64,000 nucleotides of DNA, from contig JBAZXP010000001.1 of the NCBI GenBank assembly GCA_041659805.1, positions 320,589-384,588 of the forward strand. The letters are read 5' to 3'. The DNA comes from Microgenomates group bacterium (lineage in GTDB: Bacteria; Patescibacteriota; Microgenomatia; Daviesbacterales; UBA10151). The notes beneath the pieces are model-generated. The model was given only the letters and a program-made list of their open reading frames with translations. It had not been told where the DNA came from and searched no databases. A program made the translations under genes and the position numbers. Shown one piece after another: positions 23,493 through 64,000 of this stretch. How positions within the stretch are numbered: position 1 is the stretch's first letter; each line of letters opens with the position of its first letter.

Positions 23493-23612
23493 GACTTGAT
23501 TAAATATCAAGAGAGATGGGTAGAGCTCTGGCTCGATGATCCATCCAGCAACCCCTCCACCAAAGGTGGATAAAGGTGCTAAGTCCAGCTCCTGAGTGAA
23601 ATCGAAGGAGAA
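23493..23612 (+). ncRNA. SAM-I (S-box) riboswitch in the metK 5' leader
   Basis: AUCAAGAGAG junction, GAUGG/CCAUC P2, GCAACC, UCCACC-AAA-GGUGGA P3, GGUGCUAAGUCCAGC, CUCCU/AGGAG P4. The 3' strand of P4/P1 contains the metK Shine-Dalgarno sequence AAGGAG. Confidence 0.6.
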
Positions 23613-23625
23613 AGATAAGGTAAAT

Positions 23626-24678
23626 ATGTTTTACAACACAAAAATTTATACAGTAGAAAGCGTAACCTCAGGACACCCGGATAAAATATGTGATGCTATA
23701 TCTGACGCAATTTTAGATGAATGTTTAAAACAAGATCCAACTTCCCGTGTTGCTGTCGAAAGTTTTGGAGGACATGGAGTTTTAATTGTTGGTGGGGAAG
23801 TCACAACAAAAGCAAAAGTTGATTACGAAAAAATTGCTGCCAAAGTTTATAAGGAAATAGGGCACTCAAATAAATTAAAAATAATTACCAATGTAGTCAC
23901 CCAATCACCTGATATAGCCCAAGGGGTTAATACCGGTGGGGCAGGGGATCAAGGTATTATGTATGGATACGCGACTACAGAAACAGATGAGTACTTACCA
24001 AAAGGAATTGTTTTAGTTCATAAATTAGTAAAGGGACTGGAAGATTTAAGAAAGAGTAAAAAAATTTCCTGGCTTAAGCCGGACGGAAAAGCGCAAGTTA
24101 CATTACAAAATGGCAAAGTCAGATCAGTTTTAGTTTCTACACAACATGATAAAAAAGTTTCATCTGAAGAAATTAGAGAAACATTAATTAAAAAATTAAT
24201 TAAACCTGTTATAGGGGATTTAACTGGGGTTGAAGTGTTGGTAAATCCCACAGGGAACTTTGTCTTAGGTGGGTTTGAGGCTGATACAGGGCTCACAGGA
24301 CGGAAATTAATGGTAGATACATATGGTGGTTTAATTCCTCATGGAGGAGGTTGCTTTTCGGGAAAAGATCCGACAAAAGTGGACAGGTCTGCAGCCTACA
24401 TGTGCAGATTTGTTGCCAAAAATATTGTTGCCAATAAACTTGCTAAGGAATGCTTGGTATCTGTGGCTTACGCCATAGGCCGCGCCGAACCATTAATGGT
24501 AGAAGTTATTGATGAAAAAGGAAGAAATATTACCAAACTTATAAAAGGAAAATTTGATTTCCGTCCCCTGGTTATTATAGAAAGACTGGATCTTCAAAAA
24601 CCAATTTACAGCCAAACTTCTTCCTACGGACATTTCGGAAAACCCAATCTCCCTTGGGAACAAATAATTAAATTTTAG
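23626..24678 (+). CDS. metK: S-adenosylmethionine synthetase (compact, about 350 aa)
   Basis: GHPDKICD, GGAGDQGIMYGYA and DTYGG...HGGGCFSGKDPTKVDRSAAY motifs. The start was moved to the ATG at 23626, downstream of the SD in the riboswitch. Confidence 0.92.
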   Translation: MFYNTKIYTVESVTSGHPDKICDAISDAILDECLKQDPTSRVAVESFGGHGVLIVGGEVTTKAKVDYEKIAAKVYKEIGHSNKLKIITNVVTQSPDIAQGVNTGGAGDQGIMYGYATTETDEYLPKGIVLVHKLVKGLEDLRKSKKISWLKPDGKAQVTLQNGKVRSVLVSTQHDKKVSSEEIRETLIKKLIKPVIGDLTGVEVLVNPTGNFVLGGFEADTGLTGRKLMVDTYGGLIPHGGGCFSGKDPTKVDRSAAYMCRFVAKNIVANKLAKECLVSVAYAIGRAEPLMVEVIDEKGRNITKLIKGKFDFRPLVIIERLDLQKPIYSQTSSYGHFGKPNLPWEQIIKF

Positions 24679-41114: not shown

Positions 41115-41639
41115 ATGGAGAACTCTCGAAATAATAGTAATTTAACTTTGGTAGATGACACTCTTCCTGCTGTAACTTCTGACTCTGAAGAATATGATGT
41201 TGATATTTGGTGGGTAAAAGATGTCAAACCTGGGGATGCCAAGCAGGCAGAGAAGACAATGAGGGCTTTGTTAAACGCAGGACTCAAACCCAGACTTGTA
41301 GCTCATGCTTTAGAAAAAGGACATGGATATGAAATAGAAAGTCTAATTACCCGTCAAAAATTTATTAATTTAGATGGAAAGATGGGGGAATTGGCAGCAA
41401 CAGATCAAGTAGTTGGGGCTTATGAAGTTGTGGAAAAGTTAACATTGGGAATGGGTGAGCAAACTGTAGAAGAAATGGTTCAAGAAGAAGGATTAATAAG
41501 AGCTAAAGTGGTAACTAATATTGAACAAATCAGAGATCAAAGCCAAGAGCAGATACAAAAAATTGAAATGACAGTAGTAATTAAACAAGAACCTCCTAAA
41601 CAAATTATAGATAGTTTGGAAGATAAAATAGCAGCTTAG
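41115..41639 (+). CDS. Hypothetical acidic protein
   Basis: 174-aa ORF with no motifs I recognise; it abuts the tRNA-Pro 3' end. Confidence 0.35.
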   Translation: MENSRNNSNLTLVDDTLPAVTSDSEEYDVDIWWVKDVKPGDAKQAEKTMRALLNAGLKPRLVAHALEKGHGYEIESLITRQKFINLDGKMGELAATDQVVGAYEVVEKLTLGMGEQTVEEMVQEEGLIRAKVVTNIEQIRDQSQEQIQKIEMTVVIKQEPPKQIIDSLEDKIAA

Positions 41640-41711
41640 TCGGGGTGACAGGAATTGAACCTGCTACATCTGGACCCCCAGCCCAGCGTTCTGCCGATGA
41701 ACTACACCCCG
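41640..41711 (-). tRNA. tRNA-Pro (anticodon GGG)
   Basis: Minus-strand cloverleaf read by hand. Acceptor CGGGGUG/CACCCCG, D-arm GUUC/GAAC, anticodon stem CUGGG/UCCAG with loop CUGGGGG (U33, GGG, G37), a 5-nt variable loop, T-arm GCAGG-UUCAAUU-CCUGU, discriminator A, no encoded CCA. Confidence 0.8.
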
Positions 41712-41759
41712 AAACCTTTGTATTTTAGCATTTTCCCTACTCTTTTCGTATAGATTCTT

Positions 41760-41773
41760 ATGTATCCATACAT
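41760..41773. repeat. Perfect 14-bp palindrome ATGTATCCATACAT between tRNA-Pro and recA (copy 1 of 3)
   Basis: Self-complementary 7-2-7. It is flanked by ctt...caaaaca, which it shares with the copy at 46875. Confidence 0.7.
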
Positions 41774-41798
41774 CAAAACATGATATGAAAATGATATC

Positions 41799-41826
41799 TT
41801 GACAGGGTTTCGGGTTTTGTTAATAT
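41799..41826 (+). promoter_or_regulatory. recA promoter (TTGACA-N16-TAATAT), predicted to give a leaderless or near-leaderless recA mRNA
   Basis: ttgaca at 41799-41804, taatat at 41821-41826, recA ATG at 41834. Confidence 0.4.
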
Positions 41827-41833
41827 AAGTATT

Positions 41834-42901
41834 ATGTCAGATAACGGGGAAGCCAAAAAATCAGCCATTTTAACCGCTATGGCGCAAATTCAAAAGTCCT
41901 ACGGAAGTGGGTCTATTATGCGGCTTGGTGAACGGGCTGAAAAAATGACTGCTGAAGTCATTTCCACTGGTTCTATTGCACTTGATTTAGCTCTCGGTAT
42001 TGGAGGATTACCAAAAGGCAGAATTATTGAAATTTATGGTCCAGAAGCATCCGGAAAAACAACCATTTGTTTGCATGTTATTGCAGAAGCCCAGAAAAAA
42101 GGTGGCACAGCAGCTTTTATTGATGCAGAACACGCCCTTGATCCACAAAGAGCCCAAAGAGTAGGAGTTAACCTGGATGATTTACTTATTTCCCAACCAG
42201 ATACTGGTGAACAAGCTTTGGAAATTGCAGAAACTTTAATTAGATCTGGTGGGATTGATGTAATTGTTATTGATTCTGTAGCAGCCTTAGTACCTAAAGC
42301 AGAAATAGAAGGTGAAATGGGTGATTCAGTTATGGGTATGCAAGCCCGCCTTATGTCGCAAGCTTTGCGCAAATTAACTGGTGCAATTTCCAACACTAAC
42401 ACTATTTGTATTTTTACTAATCAACTAAGACAAAAAATTGGTGTGATGTTTGGTAATCCTGAAACAACCACCGGTGGTTTGGCTTTGAAGTTTTACTCCT
42501 CTATTAGGCTTGATATCAGAAAAATAGAAAATATTAAACAAGGAGATGTGGTAGTTGGATCAAGGCATAGGGTTAAAGTTGTAAAAAATAAAATGGCTCC
42601 CCCATTCCGGATTGCTGAATTTGATATGGATCAAAATGGTATTTCTCATGAAGGAGAAATTTTGGATGTTGGTATTGAGTTGGGGATTTTAAGTAAAGCA
42701 GGTGCTTTTATAAAACAAGGAGATCAACTTTTAGGTCAAGGCAGACAGGCAGCTATTACCACTTTAAAGGAAGACAAAAAAATGGCAGAAAAATTGGATA
42801 AAGAAATTCGGGAAGCTTGGTTAAAACAATCAACTGGTAAAGATTTAGTGGTAGGAAAAGAAGAAGCTGAAGATGATGCTGAAACCCCAGCAACAGTTTA
42901 A
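41834..42901 (+). CDS. recA: Recombinase RecA
   Basis: 355 aa; GPEASGKTT Walker A and the ...[36 protein letters not shown]... core. Confidence 0.97.
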
Positions 42902-43408
42902 TTATTTATAATAACCACGGATTTTATAAAGAATATAAAGGGAAGCAATTGTTATTAATGTATAAATATTTACCCATCCATTATAACTTGGATTGAAAGA
43001 ACCCTCCCATACTATTAATCCCCACGGATCTGTTAGGCCATAATTTTTCAACAAACCAAGAATCATTGTAAAAACCAAGATAGCCCAGGAAAAACGCCAT
43101 CTTTTGAATAAGCCAACAATAAAAATAATTTCAATGGTAATCGCTGTTAAACCTGTGGTATTACTAACAATATTCGGCGACACCTCTTTTATTATAAAAA
43201 CAAAAACAGGATAAATAAGAATAACTACAACATTAGTTATGACTGAGAAGGGACTGATGATTAGTCCTGCCATAAGAAATTCATAAATCGACAAGGGAAT
43301 CAACGTTAGTGTGTGACTTAGAATGAAATAAACTAAATAGAAAATACCTAAAGCTTTTATTGTAAGTATTTTCCAATCTTGGGTTTGGGTTTTAACTTTT
43401 TTGGGCAT
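42902..43408 (-). CDS. Polytopic membrane protein (hypothetical)
   Basis: Four or five TM helices. Start set to the internal Met (MPKKVKTQTQDW...) so that it does not overlap recX. Confidence 0.4.
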   Translation of the reverse strand: MPKKVKTQTQDWKILTIKALGIFYLVYFILSHTLTLIPLSIYEFLMAGLIISPFSVITNVVVILIYPVFVFIIKEVSPNIVSNTTGLTAITIEIIFIVGLFKRWRFSWAILVFTMILGLLKNYGLTDPWGLIVWEGSFNPSYNGWVNIYTLITIASLYILYKIRGYYK

Positions 43409-43457
43409 TAAATAAATTATAAGTAAATTTTGTTTCTTTACAAGTAAGCTGGTAGAA

Positions 43458-44123
43458 TTGACCTGCATGTTAACCATAACCTCGGTAGAACCACAAAAGA
43501 AAAATCTCAAACGTTTTAATATCTTTTTGGATGGGAAATTTGCCTTTGGGGCAGATGAAGATTTAATTGTTGATCACAGACTGGTGGTAGGAAAAATAAT
43601 TCAAACAGAAGATTTAGAAAAACTCTTATTTGAAGCAGAGGTTGGAAAATTAATGGAGAAAATGTATAACTGGTTTAGCTTCAGACAACATTCTGAAAAA
43701 GAAACCAGGGATTACTTAAAAAACCTTTCTTTTAAAAGAAAAATTAAGGATCAGGATGAAATTTCAGAGGTTGTTACTTCCCTACTGATAGAAAGATTAA
43801 AGAAAAAAGGTTTAATTAATGATCTAGAATTTGCTAAAGCTTGGGTGGATGCCAGACGAAGGAGCAAACAAAAAGGTGTTAATGCTTTAAAATCAGAGCT
43901 ATATCAAAAAGGAATAGACAGAGAAATTATTGATGAATTGTTAGAAAGTGATGATGAGTCTGAAGAAAAACTGGCGGAAATTGCCTTAGAGAAAAAAATA
44001 AATTCATGGAAAAACTTGGAACCCAAAAAGCAAAAACAAAAAGCCTTGGAATTTCTGATGAGAAAAGGGTTTGAGTATGACATAGCAAAAGAAGTAATTG
44101 AAAAAATGATGAAAATGAGTTAA
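43458..44123 (+). CDS. recX: Regulatory protein RecX
   Basis: 221 aa; helical repeats ...RDYLKNLSFKRKI...LERLKKKGLINDLEFAKAWVDARRRSKQKGVNALKSELYQKGIDREII... typical of RecX. Confidence 0.75.
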   Translation: MTCMLTITSVEPQKKNLKRFNIFLDGKFAFGADEDLIVDHRLVVGKIIQTEDLEKLLFEAEVGKLMEKMYNWFSFRQHSEKETRDYLKNLSFKRKIKDQDEISEVVTSLLIERLKKKGLINDLEFAKAWVDARRRSKQKGVNALKSELYQKGIDREIIDELLESDDESEEKLAEIALEKKINSWKNLEPKKQKQKALEFLMRKGFEYDIAKEVIEKMMKMS

Positions 44124-44259
44124 TATTACCTATAGTTTGTAAGAAACTTTAAAACTTAAGGATAGATTGATGAAACAAATCAAACTAACGGTTTTTAAAT
44201 AACTTCCTGGTCTCCCCTATTTTTAGGGTAAGTTTTATTTCTCTTACAACATAAAAAAT

Positions 44260-45558
44260 ATGCAAAAAACATTTGGTTCAATCAATACTCAGGATGAGAC
44301 TGCTCTTGCTAAACGCGAGGGAATTTTAGAAGAGCGCGAAAGAGTTTTGGCAGAAAAATTAAAAGCTGTTGATGAAAAACTCGAAGTTTTAGAAAAAACC
44401 CGCAAGGATTTAATTTTAAAAATTGAAAAATCTTCCGGAATGTCAGAGGAACAAGCTCAGAAAATCTTGCTGGAAAATGTTGAAAAAGATTTGGCCTCAG
44501 AAATTTCCAAAAAAGTAAAAGAAGCTGAAGAAGAAATTAAACTTCAAGCTGATGAAAAATCAAAAGAGATTTTAGCAGAAGCAATGTTATCAGGGGCTAC
44601 AGACTATGTTTCAGAATTTACAACTTCTCAGGTTAATTTACCTGATGATGAAATGAAGGGGAGAATTATTGGAAAAGAAGGAAGAAATGTCAGAACTTTT
44701 GAGCAAGTTACAGGAGTTGATGTTTTGATGGATGATACCCCAGGTATGTTAATTGTTTCTTCGTTTGATCCAGTGAGGCGTGAAATTGCCAGAGTATCTT
44801 TGGAAAGATTAATCAAAGACGGTAGAATCCAACCACAAAGAATCGAAGAAATAGTTGCAGAAACAAAAGAAGATATAGAAAAAATAATGTTTCAGGCAGG
44901 TGAGCAATTAGCTCATGAAGTTGGTGTTTATAATTTACAAAGAGAATTAGTTGAATATTTAGGCAGATTTAAATACAGATATTCTTATGGTCAAAATATG
45001 CTTCAACACACTTTGGAAGAAACCAGAATTGGTATTGCTTTAGCAAAAGAATTAGGAGCTAACGCTAATGTAGTCAGACTTGGTTGTTTACTTCATGATA
45101 TCGGAAAAGTTGTTTCTGAAGATGAAGGGACACATGTTGAAAAAGGTGTGCAACTAGCTAAAAAGTTTGGTATGCCACCAGAAGTTGTTGCTTGTATTGC
45201 CCAGCACCATGAAGATGAGCCTTTTTCTTCCACAGAATCTATTGTTTGTTATATTGCAGATGCAATTTCCGGTGCCAGACCAGGAGCCAGACGTGAAGAT
45301 GTTGAAGGTTATATTAATAGAATCTCAGATATAGAAAAAATTGCTATGTCTTATGAAGGAGTAGAAAAAGCTTTTGCTGTTGCAGCAGGACGAGAGGTTA
45401 GAATTATTGTGTATCCTGAAAAAATCTCTGATGATGAATTACCAAAACTAACACATGATATTGCAACTCAAATCGCTAAAGAAGTTATGGTGCCTGGACA
45501 GGTTAAAGTTACAGCTATCAGAGAAGTCAGAGCTGTTGATTATTCCATCTCTTCATAA
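44260..45558 (+). CDS. rny: Ribonuclease Y (KH + HD), lacking the usual N-terminal TM helix
   Basis: 432 aa; KH motif GRIIGKEGRNVRTFEQVTGVDV, HD motif LLHDIGK, coiled-coil N-terminus. Confidence 0.85.
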   Translation: MQKTFGSINTQDETALAKREGILEERERVLAEKLKAVDEKLEVLEKTRKDLILKIEKSSGMSEEQAQKILLENVEKDLASEISKKVKEAEEEIKLQADEKSKEILAEAMLSGATDYVSEFTTSQVNLPDDEMKGRIIGKEGRNVRTFEQVTGVDVLMDDTPGMLIVSSFDPVRREIARVSLERLIKDGRIQPQRIEEIVAETKEDIEKIMFQAGEQLAHEVGVYNLQRELVEYLGRFKYRYSYGQNMLQHTLEETRIGIALAKELGANANVVRLGCLLHDIGKVVSEDEGTHVEKGVQLAKKFGMPPEVVACIAQHHEDEPFSSTESIVCYIADAISGARPGARREDVEGYINRISDIEKIAMSYEGVEKAFAVAAGREVRIIVYPEKISDDELPKLTHDIATQIAKEVMVPGQVKVTAIREVRAVDYSISS

Positions 45559-45692
45559 ACCAATTTAACTCGAATTTGCAACTCTCGTTAAATGGTTTGA
45601 ACTCAAAAATTTTGATTAGAAGTTGTAAATTGGAATATTTTGAGTATAAAGGTATTTACATCTCTATCCCTTTCTGTTAAATTCAAGGGGAT

Positions 45693-45965
45693 ATGACAAA
45701 GAACGAGTTGATAGAGAAAGTTGCCAAAAAATCTCATTTAACCAAGAGGGCTGCAGCTGATGCAGTTAATTCTACCTTTGGGTTGATTAAAGACTCTTTA
45801 GTCAGAGGTGAAAAAGTAATTATTACTGGTTTTGGGACATTTTTAATAAGAAGTAGGGCTGCGAGACGTGGAAGAAATCCACAAACAGGTGGTGTAATTC
45901 AAATTCCTCAGAAAAAAACTCCAGGTTTTACAGCTGGTAAAACCATAAAGCGTTTAATTAAGTAA
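45693..45965 (+). CDS. hup: HU family DNA-binding protein
   Basis: 90 aa; ...GFGTFLIRSRAARRGRNPQTGGVIQIPQKKTPGFTAGKTIK... Confidence 0.9.
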   Translation: MTKNELIEKVAKKSHLTKRAAADAVNSTFGLIKDSLVRGEKVIITGFGTFLIRSRAARRGRNPQTGGVIQIPQKKTPGFTAGKTIKRLIK

Positions 45966-45985
45966 AACTTTTCAGTTTATATTTG

Positions 45986-46014
45986 TTGACTTCCCTGTTA
46001 TTTTGTAATAATAT
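45986..46014 (+). promoter_or_regulatory. Promoter of the TrpR/YerC-like gene (TTGACT-N17-TAATAT); its -10 overlaps palindrome copy 2
   Basis: ttgact at 45986-45991, taatat at 46009-46014. The ATG at 46025 is only ~11 nt downstream, so the mRNA is leaderless or has a very short leader. Confidence 0.4.
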
Positions 46015-46026
46015 GTATCCATACAT
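46013..46026. repeat. Perfect 14-bp palindrome ATGTATCCATACAT (copy 2 of 3), overlapping the -10/+1 of the TrpR/YerC-like gene
   Basis: Identical to the copy at 41760-41773. Confidence 0.7.
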
Positions 46027-46318
46027 GAGCAAACCGTCTGATGCTAAAGATATAAATATTCCAGATCACATTTTAAGGCAGCTGTTAACCCCTTCAGAGT
46101 TGAGAATGTTAAAAAACCGTTGGCATATTGTTAACCGTTTAGAAGAAGGATTACCGGTCAGAAAAATTGCGGAAGACGTAAAAGTGGGAACAGACACAGT
46201 TGTTCGCGTTTCTAAGATGATGCAATCAGGAGAGCTTCAAAAAACGCTTGATAAAGAAAAAAGAGGACTAAAAAAGATTAAGACTTCTACTCCCTGGATT
46301 TTCGGTAAAACAGAATAA
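46025..46318 (+). CDS. TrpR-like YerC/YecD family DNA-binding protein
   Basis: 97 aa from the ATG at 46025; ...LTPSELRMLKNRWHIVNRLEEGLPVRKIAEDVKVGTDTVVRVSK... resembles the Trp-repressor-like YerC family HTH. Family recalled by eye. Confidence 0.55.
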   Translation: MSKPSDAKDINIPDHILRQLLTPSELRMLKNRWHIVNRLEEGLPVRKIAEDVKVGTDTVVRVSKMMQSGELQKTLDKEKRGLKKIKTSTPWIFGKTE

Positions 46319-46337
46319 TAAATTCCTCAATAAAAAA

Positions 46338-47285
46338 ATGAAAAAAGTTTTAGTAATCTTAGGTCCAACTGCTACCGGAAAAACTGATTTGGCATTGGAT
46401 TTGGCCAAAAAATTAAACGGAGAATTAGTTTCCTGTGATTCTAGACAAGTTTATAAGGGATTGGATATTGGAACGGGAAAAATGCCGGGAAAAGATTTAG
46501 GATTTAAGAAATATGATTTAAGATGGGAAATCGATGGCACAGATGTTTGGATGTACGATGTGGCTGATTTTAAGACACAATATACAGTTAAGGATTACGT
46601 TAATCAGGCAGAAAAAGTAATTGAAGATATTATTAATAGAAACAAATTACCGATTATTGTCGGAGGAACAGGATTATATCTAAAGGCGCTTTTGGAAGGC
46701 TTACCGAATTTGCAGATTCCTGTTGATGAAAAATTAAGAATGGAATTAGAGAAACTTCCATTAAATGAGTTACAGGAAAAATTGCAATCACTCTCCCCTG
46801 TCATTTGGAAAAAACTAAATGAATCTGATCAAAAAAATCCGCGCCGTCTTCTCCGCTCTATCGAGCTTATACTTATGAATCCATACATCAAAACAACTCA
46901 AAAGAAAGTGGGAATAAAAGCTAAATATGAGATATTAAAAATAGGATTGACTGCCCCACGGGAAATTTTAAAAAAACGGATTTTTGACCGTTTGTTATCC
47001 AGATTTAAAAATGGGCTAGTGAAAGAATCGATAACTTTAAATAAAAAAGGGTTAACATTTAAGAGGATGAAAAGCTTAGGTTTAGAATACGGGATGTTGG
47101 CAGAACTTTTACAGAAAAAAATAAGCGAAGAACAATTTTTACAAATTCTTAATACCAAAATTTATCAATATTCCAAACGTCAGCTGACATGGTTTAAAAC
47201 TGATAAGAATATTCTATGGTTTGATATAACAGGGAAAAATTCGCGCCAAGAGCTGGAAAAACAGATTCAAAAATGGTATTATTGA
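46338..47285 (+). CDS. miaA: tRNA dimethylallyltransferase
   Basis: 315 aa; ILGPTATGKT P-loop, ...SCDSRQVYKGLDIGTGK... Confidence 0.9.
   Translation: MKKVLVILGPTATGKTDLALDLAKKLNGELVSCDSRQVYKGLDIGTGKMPGKDLGFKKYDLRWEIDGTDVWMYDVADFKTQYTVKDYVNQAEKVIEDIINRNKLPIIVGGTGLYLKALLEGLPNLQIPVDEKLRMELEKLPLNELQEKLQSLSPVIWKKLNESDQKNPRRLLRSIELILMNPYIKTTQKKVGIKAKYEILKIGLTAPREILKKRIFDRLLSRFKNGLVKESITLNKKGLTFKRMKSLGLEYGMLAELLQKKISEEQFLQILNTKIYQYSKRQLTWFKTDKNILWFDITGKNSRQELEKQIQKWYY
46875..46888. repeat. Near-palindrome ATGAATCCATACAT inside miaA (copy 3 of 3, one mismatch)
   Basis: 24 of 25 nt are identical to the recA-upstream copy including flanks (cttATG[A/T]ATCCATACATcaaaaca). It encodes MNPYIKT within MiaA. 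Confidence 0.5.
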
Positions 47286-62454: not shown

Positions 62455-63087
62455 ATGAAGATAGTTTATCGGGGTGGGTATAATAAGCATTCAGAAGAAA
62501 GTACTAAAAATTCACTTATCTTTGAATATGCAGATATTGTCAAGGAATTATTAAGTAAGGGTAAGAAAGTAGTGTATGTTACATTGGCAAAGCCAGATGG
62601 TTTTTATGATGAATATTTCTATCCACTTTTGCCCAAAACTATTCAGGTAGTAGATTCTAAAAATTTAGATAATGTTAATTGGTCAGATTTTGATGTAATT
62701 TTTTTGCTTGGTGGATTAACTATACAATTAGATGAATGTTTAAGAAGAAGTAAATTTTCTCTGGAATCTTTAAAAGAAGATGTCGTTTTGGTAGGAGATA
62801 GCGCGGGTGCTTATGTTTTATCCAAATATTATTTTGAAGATCACGACGATGTTAATGTGATTTTAGAATTTCGCAAAGGATTCTGTCCTCAGTCTAGAGT
62901 TATTACTGTAGCCCATGTTAATAATCCGCATTATGTAACACCTAAAATTTTGGAAGAGGTGCATGTATTTGCCAAAGAAAAAGGTATCAGGGTTTTGGAG
63001 CTGATTGAAAATGAATCAAAGCTGCTAGATTCAGAAGGTAATTTTGTTGATTTTGATATAAATCAATTGTTTGAAAAAATTATTTAA
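62455..63087 (+). CDS. Peptidase S51 (dipeptidase E / class I glutamine amidotransferase-like) family protein
   Basis: About 210 aa; LLGGL...VLVGDSAGAY is a Ser nucleophile elbow. Confidence 0.5.
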   Translation: MKIVYRGGYNKHSEESTKNSLIFEYADIVKELLSKGKKVVYVTLAKPDGFYDEYFYPLLPKTIQVVDSKNLDNVNWSDFDVIFLLGGLTIQLDECLRRSKFSLESLKEDVVLVGDSAGAYVLSKYYFEDHDDVNVILEFRKGFCPQSRVITVAHVNNPHYVTPKILEEVHVFAKEKGIRVLELIENESKLLDSEGNFVDFDINQLFEKII

Positions 63088-64000
63088 TTTCTTTAATTCT
63101 ATTTAATAAATATTCCTTATTATTTTTATTTGAGTCTTCTAAAACCTCTTCAAAAAGTTTTTGTAGAATTTCTCCAACTTTTTTACCAGGCTGAATATTT
63201 AAAGCTTCCATTACATCTTGTCCATTAATTTTTAAATCAGATATAGAAAAAGGTTTAGTTAAGACTTGTTTAATTCTGTCTTGGAATGCTTCCATTCTCC
63301 AGGAAACTGCTCTTTCAGTGCCTCCGCCTAATCTGTCTCCTATTCTTAGAGCGATTGCGTCATCTACGTTTTCCAGTTCTACATTATTAATGAATCTTCT
63401 GATTGCAGAATCTGTTTGATTTTCATCAACACTGAATTGATGCCAGCGGACAAGGCGGAATAATTTATCTGTTTGTTTTTTACTCATATTAAACCGTTTT
63501 GCAATTTGCAAGACTAGTCGGGAACCCACAACTTCATGGTTGTGAAAACTTACATTGCCTGTTGTGTCTGTTTTTGCGGTTGAAGGTTTGCCGATATCAT
63601 GAAGAAGTGCTGCGAATCTAACTAAAGGATCTTCGGAAGGCACCGTTTTAAGGGCAAGTAGGGAGTGCTCACCTATATCATAAACTCTTGCATGCTTTGG
63701 ACCTTCTTGTGCAACTCCGAAACAACTTTCTACTTCGGGTAAAATAATTTGCAGAATCCCCGCTTCTCTCAGTTTTAATATACCTATGTATGGATTCGTA
63801 GATGCAAGGATAGCAAAAAGTTCATCTCTCACTCTCTCTTGTGCAATTTCCTTAATTAATGAAGCATCGTCACGGATTGATTTAAAAGTATTTTTTTCTA
63901 TATCAAATTCTAATTGGGTGGCGATTCGGATTGCCCGCATCATTCGGAGCGCATCTTCTTTAAAGCGGTTATTCGGGTCACCCACAGCCTTGATCAGATG
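63080..64000 (-). CDS. cca: CCA-adding enzyme / poly(A) polymerase family protein with HD domain (partial; N-terminal head domain lies beyond the window)
   Basis: ...RFKEDALRMMRAIRIATQLEFDI..., the neck, and the HD motif LLHDIGKP. The ORF stays open at the window edge. Confidence 0.7.
   Translation of the reverse strand, partial: HLIKAVGDPNNRFKEDALRMMRAIRIATQLEFDIEKNTFKSIRDDASLIKEIAQERVRDELFAILASTNPYIGILKLREAGILQIILPEVESCFGVAQEGPKHARVYDIGEHSLLALKTVPSEDPLVRFAALLHDIGKPSTAKTDTTGNVSFHNHEVVGSRLVLQIAKRFNMSKKQTDKLFRLVRWHQFSVDENQTDSAIRRFINNVELENVDDAIALRIGDRLGGGTERAVSWRMEAFQDRIKQVLTKPFSISDLKINGQDVMEALNIQPGKKVGEILQKLFEEVLEDSNKNNKEYLLNRIKEIK

Follow-up and report, generated by a model that had tools for sequence, protein, structure and literature searches.

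A probable operator shared by recA, miaA and a TrpR-superfamily regulator gene in Candidatus Daviesbacteria and relatives

The archetypal target of LexA is recA, and the LexA box of the gammaproteobacteria (the E. coli SOS box) is CTGTAT-N4-ATACAG. At the recA promoter of B. subtilis, ComK uses a LexA-independent upstream site; ComK boxes are pairs of AAAA-N5-TTTT. The subject of this study is a short inverted repeat, TGTAT-CC-ATACA, that is found upstream of recA, at the promoter of a gene encoding a small TrpR-superfamily protein (referred to here as the regulator) and inside miaA. These three genes lie in a 64,000-nucleotide stretch of DNA from a Microgenomates group bacterium (assembly GCA_041659805.1, contig JBAZXP010000001.1, positions 320,589 to 384,588 of the forward strand), which is called the window throughout. 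The repeat is probably the operator of the regulator. Coordinates of the features are collected in Table 1.

Repressors of the TrpR family bind palindromes, and a candidate site precedes hisR in approximately half of the genomes (PMC9413887). The B. subtilis protein YerC, also named HisR, represses in a histidine-dependent manner and has a 20-bp motif (cacTTTA-N6-TAAAgtg) that stands upstream of his genes and histidine transporters (PMC9413887). A half-site spacing of 8 bp for TrpR is cited in the same paper (PMC9413887). Like HisR, the regulator is a TrpR-family protein of less than 100 aa with a palindromic putative operator, but the site (the 12-mer TGTATCCATACA) stands at recA, miaA and the regulator's own promoter rather than at his genes, and it does not have the HisR sequence. 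No HisR-type operator was found at the regulator's own promoter, where the sole conserved site is TGTATSSATACA. The resemblance to E. coli TrpR is closer in the protein than in the targets. Both belong to PF01371 and are small and all-helical (the regulator by prediction), with a helix-turn-helix (HTH) near the C-terminal half, and the best fold matches in the PDB are the TrpR-operator complexes 1TRO and 1TRR (25-29% identity over approximately 66 residues). In both cases, an inverted-repeat operator (putative here) overlaps the protein's own promoter, and the half-sites offset by 8 bp described below recall the tandem binding of TrpR named in the title of 1TRR. The regulator differs in having a shorter N-terminal region (homology starts at approximately residue 15), a conserved TPWIFGK tail and, as putative targets, recA and miaA in place of the trp and aro genes.

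The arrangement is also comparable to the two recA control systems. As in the LexA-recA SOS system, one palindromic element stands before both a regulator gene and recA. In contrast to LexA, the candidate binder lacks both an S24 peptidase domain and the winged-helix architecture, the spacing is TGT-N6-ACA rather than CTGT-N8-ACAG, the recA site is upstream of the promoter rather than over it, and no other SOS genes were seen with the site. As with ComK, the site lies upstream of the recA -35 element, an arrangement that would couple recA expression to some signal besides DNA damage. Neither the protein family nor the motif is that of ComK, and the recA core promoter is already near-consensus.

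The window was compared with 81 related loci (7 from reference genomes and 74 from metagenomes), giving a set of 82 sequences and 697 kb from Candidatus Daviesbacteria and relatives. Unless stated otherwise, motif counts refer to TGTATCCATACA or its reverse complement with at most one mismatch. The set contains 102 such matches, where approximately 7.8 would be expected: 61 are upstream of the regulator gene, 23 are upstream of recA, 15 are within miaA and 3 are elsewhere. The same three orthologous places therefore hold 99 of the 102 matches. Matches with exactly two mismatches are at background level (65 found, 79 expected). Judged from the sequences, the repeat is almost certainly the binding site of some regulator, and TGTAT-(CC/GG)-ATACA is probably the operator of the TrpR-superfamily protein, present at that protein's own promoter, at recA and in miaA.

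Within the window, the 14-mer ATGTATCCATACAT occurs exactly at 41760-41773 and 46013-46026, and the one-mismatch version ATGAATCCATACAT occurs at 46875-46888 inside miaA. A preliminary description of this DNA had reported these three copies, and the sequence read bears out their coordinates. When up to two mismatches are allowed, the window has 7 matches to the 14-mer (0.69 expected), a number that none of 100 shuffled sequences reaches. The 14-mer had been described as a perfect 7-2-7 palindrome, but its arms, ATGTAT and ATACAT, flank a non-palindromic CC and its reverse complement has two mismatches; the unit that is conserved across genomes is the 12-mer TGTATCCATACA, with a 5-2-5 structure. 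Two distances also had to be revised. The recA copy is separated from the -35 element by 25 nt (26 nt from the end of the 12-mer) rather than by approximately 40 nt, and the identity between the recA and miaA copies extends over 25 of 26 nt, CTTATG[T/A]ATCCATACATCAAAACA, rather than 24 of 25. The two copies are this alike because both carry the putative extended operator, with its conserved TA and third half-site.

Two more exact copies of the 10-mer ATCCATACAT are found in the window, one inside metK (23959-23970; gene 23596-24678) and one inside the gene for the CCA-adding enzyme (63786-63797; gene 63080-63985, minus strand). These were rejected as regulon members, as they have one and two mismatches, respectively, when counted as 12-mers, which is within chance. 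Additional regulon members among the other two-mismatch matches were rejected because the counts are at or below chance.

The central dinucleotide of the repeat is CC or GG in nearly all copies (41766-41767, 46019-46020 and 46881-46882 in the window) and AG in one. A central CG or GC, which would perfect the palindrome, occurs in no copy. Flips of the centre are frequent at the regulator gene (29:28) and rare at recA (21:2). These CC/GG flips look like minute inversions of the centre of a quasi-palindrome, and the orientation asymmetry at recA may be functional or inherited.

Sequence upstream of recA is available for 25 loci. The perfect 12-mer is present in 22 of these and one more has it with a single mismatch. 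The distance from the recA site is 58-64 nt to the ATG and 25-27 nt to the TTGAC of the -35 element, the flanking intergenic sequence has diverged, and the recA promoter layout of the window recurs in relatives. A motif-anchored alignment of the 23 recA sites reveals that the core is immediately preceded by a near-invariant TA, that a RAWACA element (a third half-site, offset by 8 bp from ATACA) follows at 2-3 nt and that a weak TnTAT stands 8 bp before the core. The recA -10 element is just 7 nt before the ATG and the recA mRNA is therefore probably leaderless; if the ATG is taken as the transcription start, the site spans approximately -73 to -54, the latter being the extended end. Depending on the locus, the tRNA-Pro gene near the recA site is convergent, co-directional and abutting, or more than 1 kb away. 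Because the position and orientation of this tRNA gene vary and the distance from the site to the -35 element is constant, the site belongs to recA.

Two other roles for the recA copy were rejected. A promoter element or integration site of tRNA-Pro is incompatible with the variable placement of the tRNA gene at a fixed distance between motif and recA -35 element. An additional promoter for recA, with the motif at +1 as it is at the regulator gene, fails as a general explanation, as there would be no room for it in several loci, where the 3' end of the tRNA gene abuts the motif.

Other features of the recA region were observed in the same alignments. In many relatives (including L003, L004, L016, L018, L040, L042 and L064), the sequence ttttggggta stands directly 5' of the recA TTGAC; aaatgatat(c/a) takes its place in the window and the relatives closest to it. 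This element could be UP-like or the site of another factor. In one locus (L042:582-2969), the P-loop of recA is interrupted in frame by 447 additional codons (GPEASGK|CVTTD...FINHN|TTVALH). The insertion has LAGLIDADG-like blocks and is an intein of the canonical type, with a homing endonuclease.

Upstream of the regulator gene, a site with at most two mismatches is present within 200 nt in 66 of 78 loci (57 unique sequences). In most relatives, it comes straight after TTGACT-N17-(-10). The window has the same arrangement: a promoter scan found a -35 and -10 pair (Table 1) where the preliminary description had placed the second copy over the -10/+1 region, and the core covers the final base of the -10 element, the probable start of transcription and the A of the start codon (46025). 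In 38 of the 57 unique regulator sites, the final A of the motif doubles as the first base of the ATG. The motif of L003 precedes the start by 27 nt and contains an out-of-frame ATG. Of the unique sites, 29 have CC at the centre and 28 have GG; this near-equality indicates that the element is used symmetrically and that neither a peptide nor an RNA is the conserved entity. Public gene calls of 98-103 aa (P0002, P0005, P0054, P0082 and P0088) begin with MYPYM, MYGYM or LLYPYV. Such extended calls, including those of 101 aa (window 46013-46027), translate the putative operator, and the conserved start is MSKP or MAKP. Recognition of the site corrects the 101-aa calls.

The order recA-recX-rny-HU-regulator is conserved in almost all loci, often followed by miaA and the transporter gene, and it extends to relatives in which the regulator has just 39% identity. 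Where a promoterless regulator gene abuts HU (as in L028), the compact recA-recX-rny-HU cluster has a single site, upstream of recA. A distant clade (L075-L080) encodes a regulator of approximately 130 aa with 39-44% identity and the same recognition helix. This clade keeps TGTATGGATAC right after its own TATAAT and has no site at recA. The site therefore follows the regulator gene, which points to the TrpR-like protein. Moreover, because the site overlaps the -10/+1 region of the regulator gene, as autoregulatory operators do, the adjacent TrpR-like protein is the best candidate binder. The preliminary description had called for a comparison of orthologous upstream regions; with the site kept at fixed positions in 66/78 regulator loci and 23/25 recA loci, its core reading, an operator over the regulator's -10/+1 with recA as second target, has strong comparative-genomics support.

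A pyrimidine element, CTCTACTCT, was observed 10-21 nt upstream of the operator (window 41735-41743, CCCTACTCT). Many regulator promoters have it between -35 and -10 (TTGACTTCTCTACTCT), many recA sites have it on their upstream side, and in some loci (for example L032 and L048) it is present in both the regulator and the recA upstream regions. Among the unique plus-strand copies of this element in the 697 kb, 18 of 50 are so placed; in the window, it shows no overall enrichment.

The site inside miaA is kept at one position in 15 loci, in a linker that follows a conserved RSIEL. This linker is otherwise hypervariable in both sequence and length, but it keeps TG[T/A]ATCCATACA and then a RATAC-like third half-site. 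In the CC-oriented miaA sites, Pro is always encoded by CCA and Tyr by TAC, codons that make up 34% of Pro codons and 22% of Tyr codons, respectively, in the window genes. In L034, the motif is flipped to TGTATGGATATA and the encoded peptide changes from MYPY to MYGY. Fixed rare codons, a flip that changes the peptide and a hypervariable linker together argue that selection acts on the DNA and not on the protein. On this evidence, the miaA copy appears to be a third conserved target held by DNA-level selection, and it would be a clean case of an operator kept within coding sequence in this way. The distance from the miaA site to the start of the transporter gene is approximately 414 nt in the window and 411-483 nt across the loci, and the miaA-transporter pair is conserved. 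Unlike the recA site, the miaA site is not followed by a conserved promoter at 25-27 nt across the loci. The AI-2E transporter gene is a possible regulated gene.

The regulator matches the Pfam Trp_repressor family over residues 9-70 (E-value: 8.3e-12), and its homologues bear precomputed PF01371 annotation. The preliminary description had assigned it to the YerC/YecD family. This assignment does not hold on the curated model (HisR, TIGR02531), for which the score is 19.3 bits against a cut-off of 42.2; the TrpR equivalog TIGR01321 was likewise not reached (27.5 bits, cut-off 67.25). In a sequence search of the PDB, the best matches are the HisR relatives 3KOR and 3G1C, which are weak (E-values: 0.002-0.004). 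An AlphaFold2 model of the regulator (pLDDT, predicted local distance difference test, 79) has six helices. When this model was compared with the PDB using Foldseek, the top 25 matches were all TrpR, HisR or putative TrpR chains, with a template modelling (TM) score of approximately 0.56 and a root mean square deviation of 2.3-2.5 A over 65-67 residues; the E-values are just 0.03-0.5, as the protein is small. The prediction is thus of a TrpR-like, all-helical fold in which helices D and E make up the HTH. The recognition helix, VGTDTVVRV, is invariant across the homologues. Co-variation between operator and recognition helix was rejected as a source of evidence because both are invariant and it is uninformative. 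The family is small, with 55 cluster representatives at an E-value of 1e-10 or lower among 1.84 billion proteins, and the nearest relatives of the window protein are from Candidatus Daviesbacteria.

The ends of the protein are also conserved. The N-terminus is MSKP, and the C-terminal tail, TPWIFGK(S/N/T)E (residues 88-97), is near-invariant family-wide, with WVFGKSEEE in the distant clade. This tail, modelled with low confidence, might serve as a degron, as a dimer contact or to bind a partner.

Table 1. Coordinates of the putative operators, promoters and genes in the window
Feature	Position in window	Strand	Evidence or remark
Putative operator core upstream of recA, TGTATCCATACA	41761-41772		Exact match
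Putative extended recA operator: TA + core + tc + third half-site AAAACA (41775-41780)	41759-41780	+	23-site alignment
Putative operator core at the regulator's own promoter	46014-46025		Exact match
Putative third operator inside miaA: TGAATCCATACA (46876-46887) + tc + AAAACA (46890-46895)	46876-46895	+	One mismatch
recA core promoter: -35 TTGACA (41799-41804), spacer 16, TG-extended -10 TAATAT (41821-41826)	41799-41826	+	Promoter scan
Regulator promoter: -35 TTGACT (45986-45991), spacer 17, -10 TAATAT (46009-46014)	45986-46014	+	Promoter scan
TrpR-superfamily regulator gene, 97 aa, start MSKP	46025-46318	+	Pfam PF01371, 45.5 bits (cut-off 27)
recA, 355 aa	41834-42901	+	Pfam RecA, E-value 1.6e-131
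miaA (tRNA isopentenyltransferase), host of the third site	46338-47285	+	Pfam IPPT, E-value 6.8e-51
AI-2E family transporter gene, directly 3' of miaA	47290-48258	+	Pfam AI-2E_transport
tRNA-Pro	41639-41711	-	

The gene context given in the preliminary description (recA, tRNA-Pro, miaA and a Trp_repressor-family gene) agrees with the Pfam matches and the tRNA call, and the identities of HU, recX and RNase Y in the window were also confirmed with Pfam. An open reading frame for a membrane-like protein of 202 aa (42902-43510, minus strand) lies antisense between recA and recX and overlaps the start of recX (43458-44123) by approximately 50 nt. This open reading frame has no family match. It is kept in L002 (58%) and is absent in most relatives, where recX directly follows recA.

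Explanations other than an operator of the regulator have to account for the same distribution. The three window copies are near-identical and lie within 5 kb of each other, and the recA and miaA copies share their flanks; the preliminary description had accordingly kept a small dispersed repeat as a fallback, and a mobile-element remnant with no regulatory role would look similar. However, only 3 copies lie away from the three orthologous positions, fewer than the approximately 7.8 matches expected by chance, the distances to the promoters are fixed, and the shared flanks consist of the conserved TA and third half-site, which are present in other genomes too. Because 99 of the 102 copies are at orthologous positions, a dispersed repeat is effectively ruled out, and we regard this explanation as extremely improbable. 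An element acting at the level of RNA or protein, such as a 5' signal of a leaderless mRNA, a hairpin, a MYPY peptide or an upstream open reading frame, is suggested by the window motif reading ATG TAT CCA TAC in frame with the regulator gene, by a mini-open reading frame (MYPYIKT*) before recA, by the MNPY encoded in the window MiaA and by the proteins of 101 aa that come from some gene callers. The evidence from the other loci makes this very improbable: CC and GG are equally common at the regulator gene and would alter any peptide, the L003 motif, upstream of the real start, has its ATG in another frame, and MiaA keeps the DNA motif when it is flipped, always with rare codons. Furthermore, the recA copy is upstream of the recA promoter and so outside the mRNA, a 2-nt centre cannot make a hairpin loop, and the predicted RNA folding of the three window copies is no better than that of shuffled sequences (z = -1.6, +0.7 and +0.5).

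A more serious alternative is that the element is a real operator bound by another factor, such as a LexA-like protein or an SOS or competence regulator, with the TrpR-like gene, recA and miaA as co-regulated targets. Several observations weigh against the TrpR-like protein as binder or leave room for such a factor. The half-sites TGTAT and ATACA are like those of the E. coli SOS box but 2 bp closer together, and recA is a typical LexA target. At 12 bp (5-2-5), the site is far shorter than the 18-20-bp operators of TrpR and HisR (approximately 18-20 bp, TGTACTAGTTAACTAGTACA, for TrpR). The centre of the recA core, near -67, is a non-classical position for a repressor. There is no site before the regulator gene in 12 of the 78 loci; in most of these the gene abuts HU or another gene and has no promoter of its own, but L044 and L045 have a promoter-like region and yet no site. 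Every locus was gathered via the regulator gene, such that cases of a recA site without the regulator are invisible to the set, and we infer the TrpR-like protein to be the best candidate binder from position and co-occurrence only. Against another factor, a tblastn search of the window and the 81 loci (697 kb only, with 64 kb from a contig of approximately 1.13 Mb for the window itself) with the E. coli and B. subtilis LexA proteins detected no LexA-like coding sequence at an E-value of 1 or lower, in agreement with the absence of LexA from the window noted in the preliminary description, and none of the 25 recA upstream regions contains a GAAC-N4-GTTC box with up to one mismatch. In the distant clade, which has no recA site, the site still accompanies the TrpR-like gene; it overlaps the regulator's -10/+1 region, and the recognition helix and the site are both invariant. 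Binding by another factor is thus considered quite unlikely, and the TrpR-like protein is retained as the probable binder.

The proposed model for the action of the TrpR-like protein is as follows. By analogy with TrpR, a dimer would bind the 5-2-5 repeat, and the half-sites offset by 8 bp would permit a tandem second dimer. At the regulator's own promoter, occupancy from the end of the -10 element to the start-codon A of a leaderless or nearly leaderless mRNA would block initiation and result in negative autoregulation. At recA, the bound protein would occupy the distal zone used by UP elements and the C-terminal domain of the RNA polymerase alpha subunit; partial repression is the favoured outcome, with approximately an even chance of being correct, and class-I-type activation is the main alternative, although a distinctly less probable one. 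The recA core promoter is near-consensus (TTGACA, TG-extended -10) and an activator would therefore hardly be needed. The miaA site would probably act as a roadblock or as an auxiliary operator. A broader proposal, in which recA of Daviesbacteria and related Microgenomates has the TrpR-like protein instead of LexA as its dedicated regulator, is tentative and must at present be considered doubtful.

Autoregulated repressors of the TrpR family are already known; what is new is this subfamily, its putative 12-bp operator and the candidate targets recA, miaA and the regulator's own promoter. No account of TrpR-family control of recA was found in the searchable literature, which did not cover the 2017 study of the SOS response in Patescibacteria (Sanchez-Osuna et al.). 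Bacteria of the candidate phyla radiation (CPR)/Patescibacteria are uncultured, with tiny genomes and few regulators, and their transcription control is nearly unexplored. The near-invariant 12-mer, at three fixed places in dozens of genomes, provides a specific and testable regulator-operator pair for this group. A lineage-restricted protein with a predicted TrpR fold appears to be tied to recA, the central gene of recombination and repair, which points to a previously undescribed form of recA control. If the broader proposal of a replacement for LexA is correct, recombination and DNA-uptake capacity would be coupled to a signal, either a small molecule or a stress, and through the miaA site the coupling would extend to tRNA modification or a transporter. 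These bacteria would then possess an SOS-like circuit built on the TrpR fold, with the TPWIFGK tail as a possible signal-sensing or turnover element.

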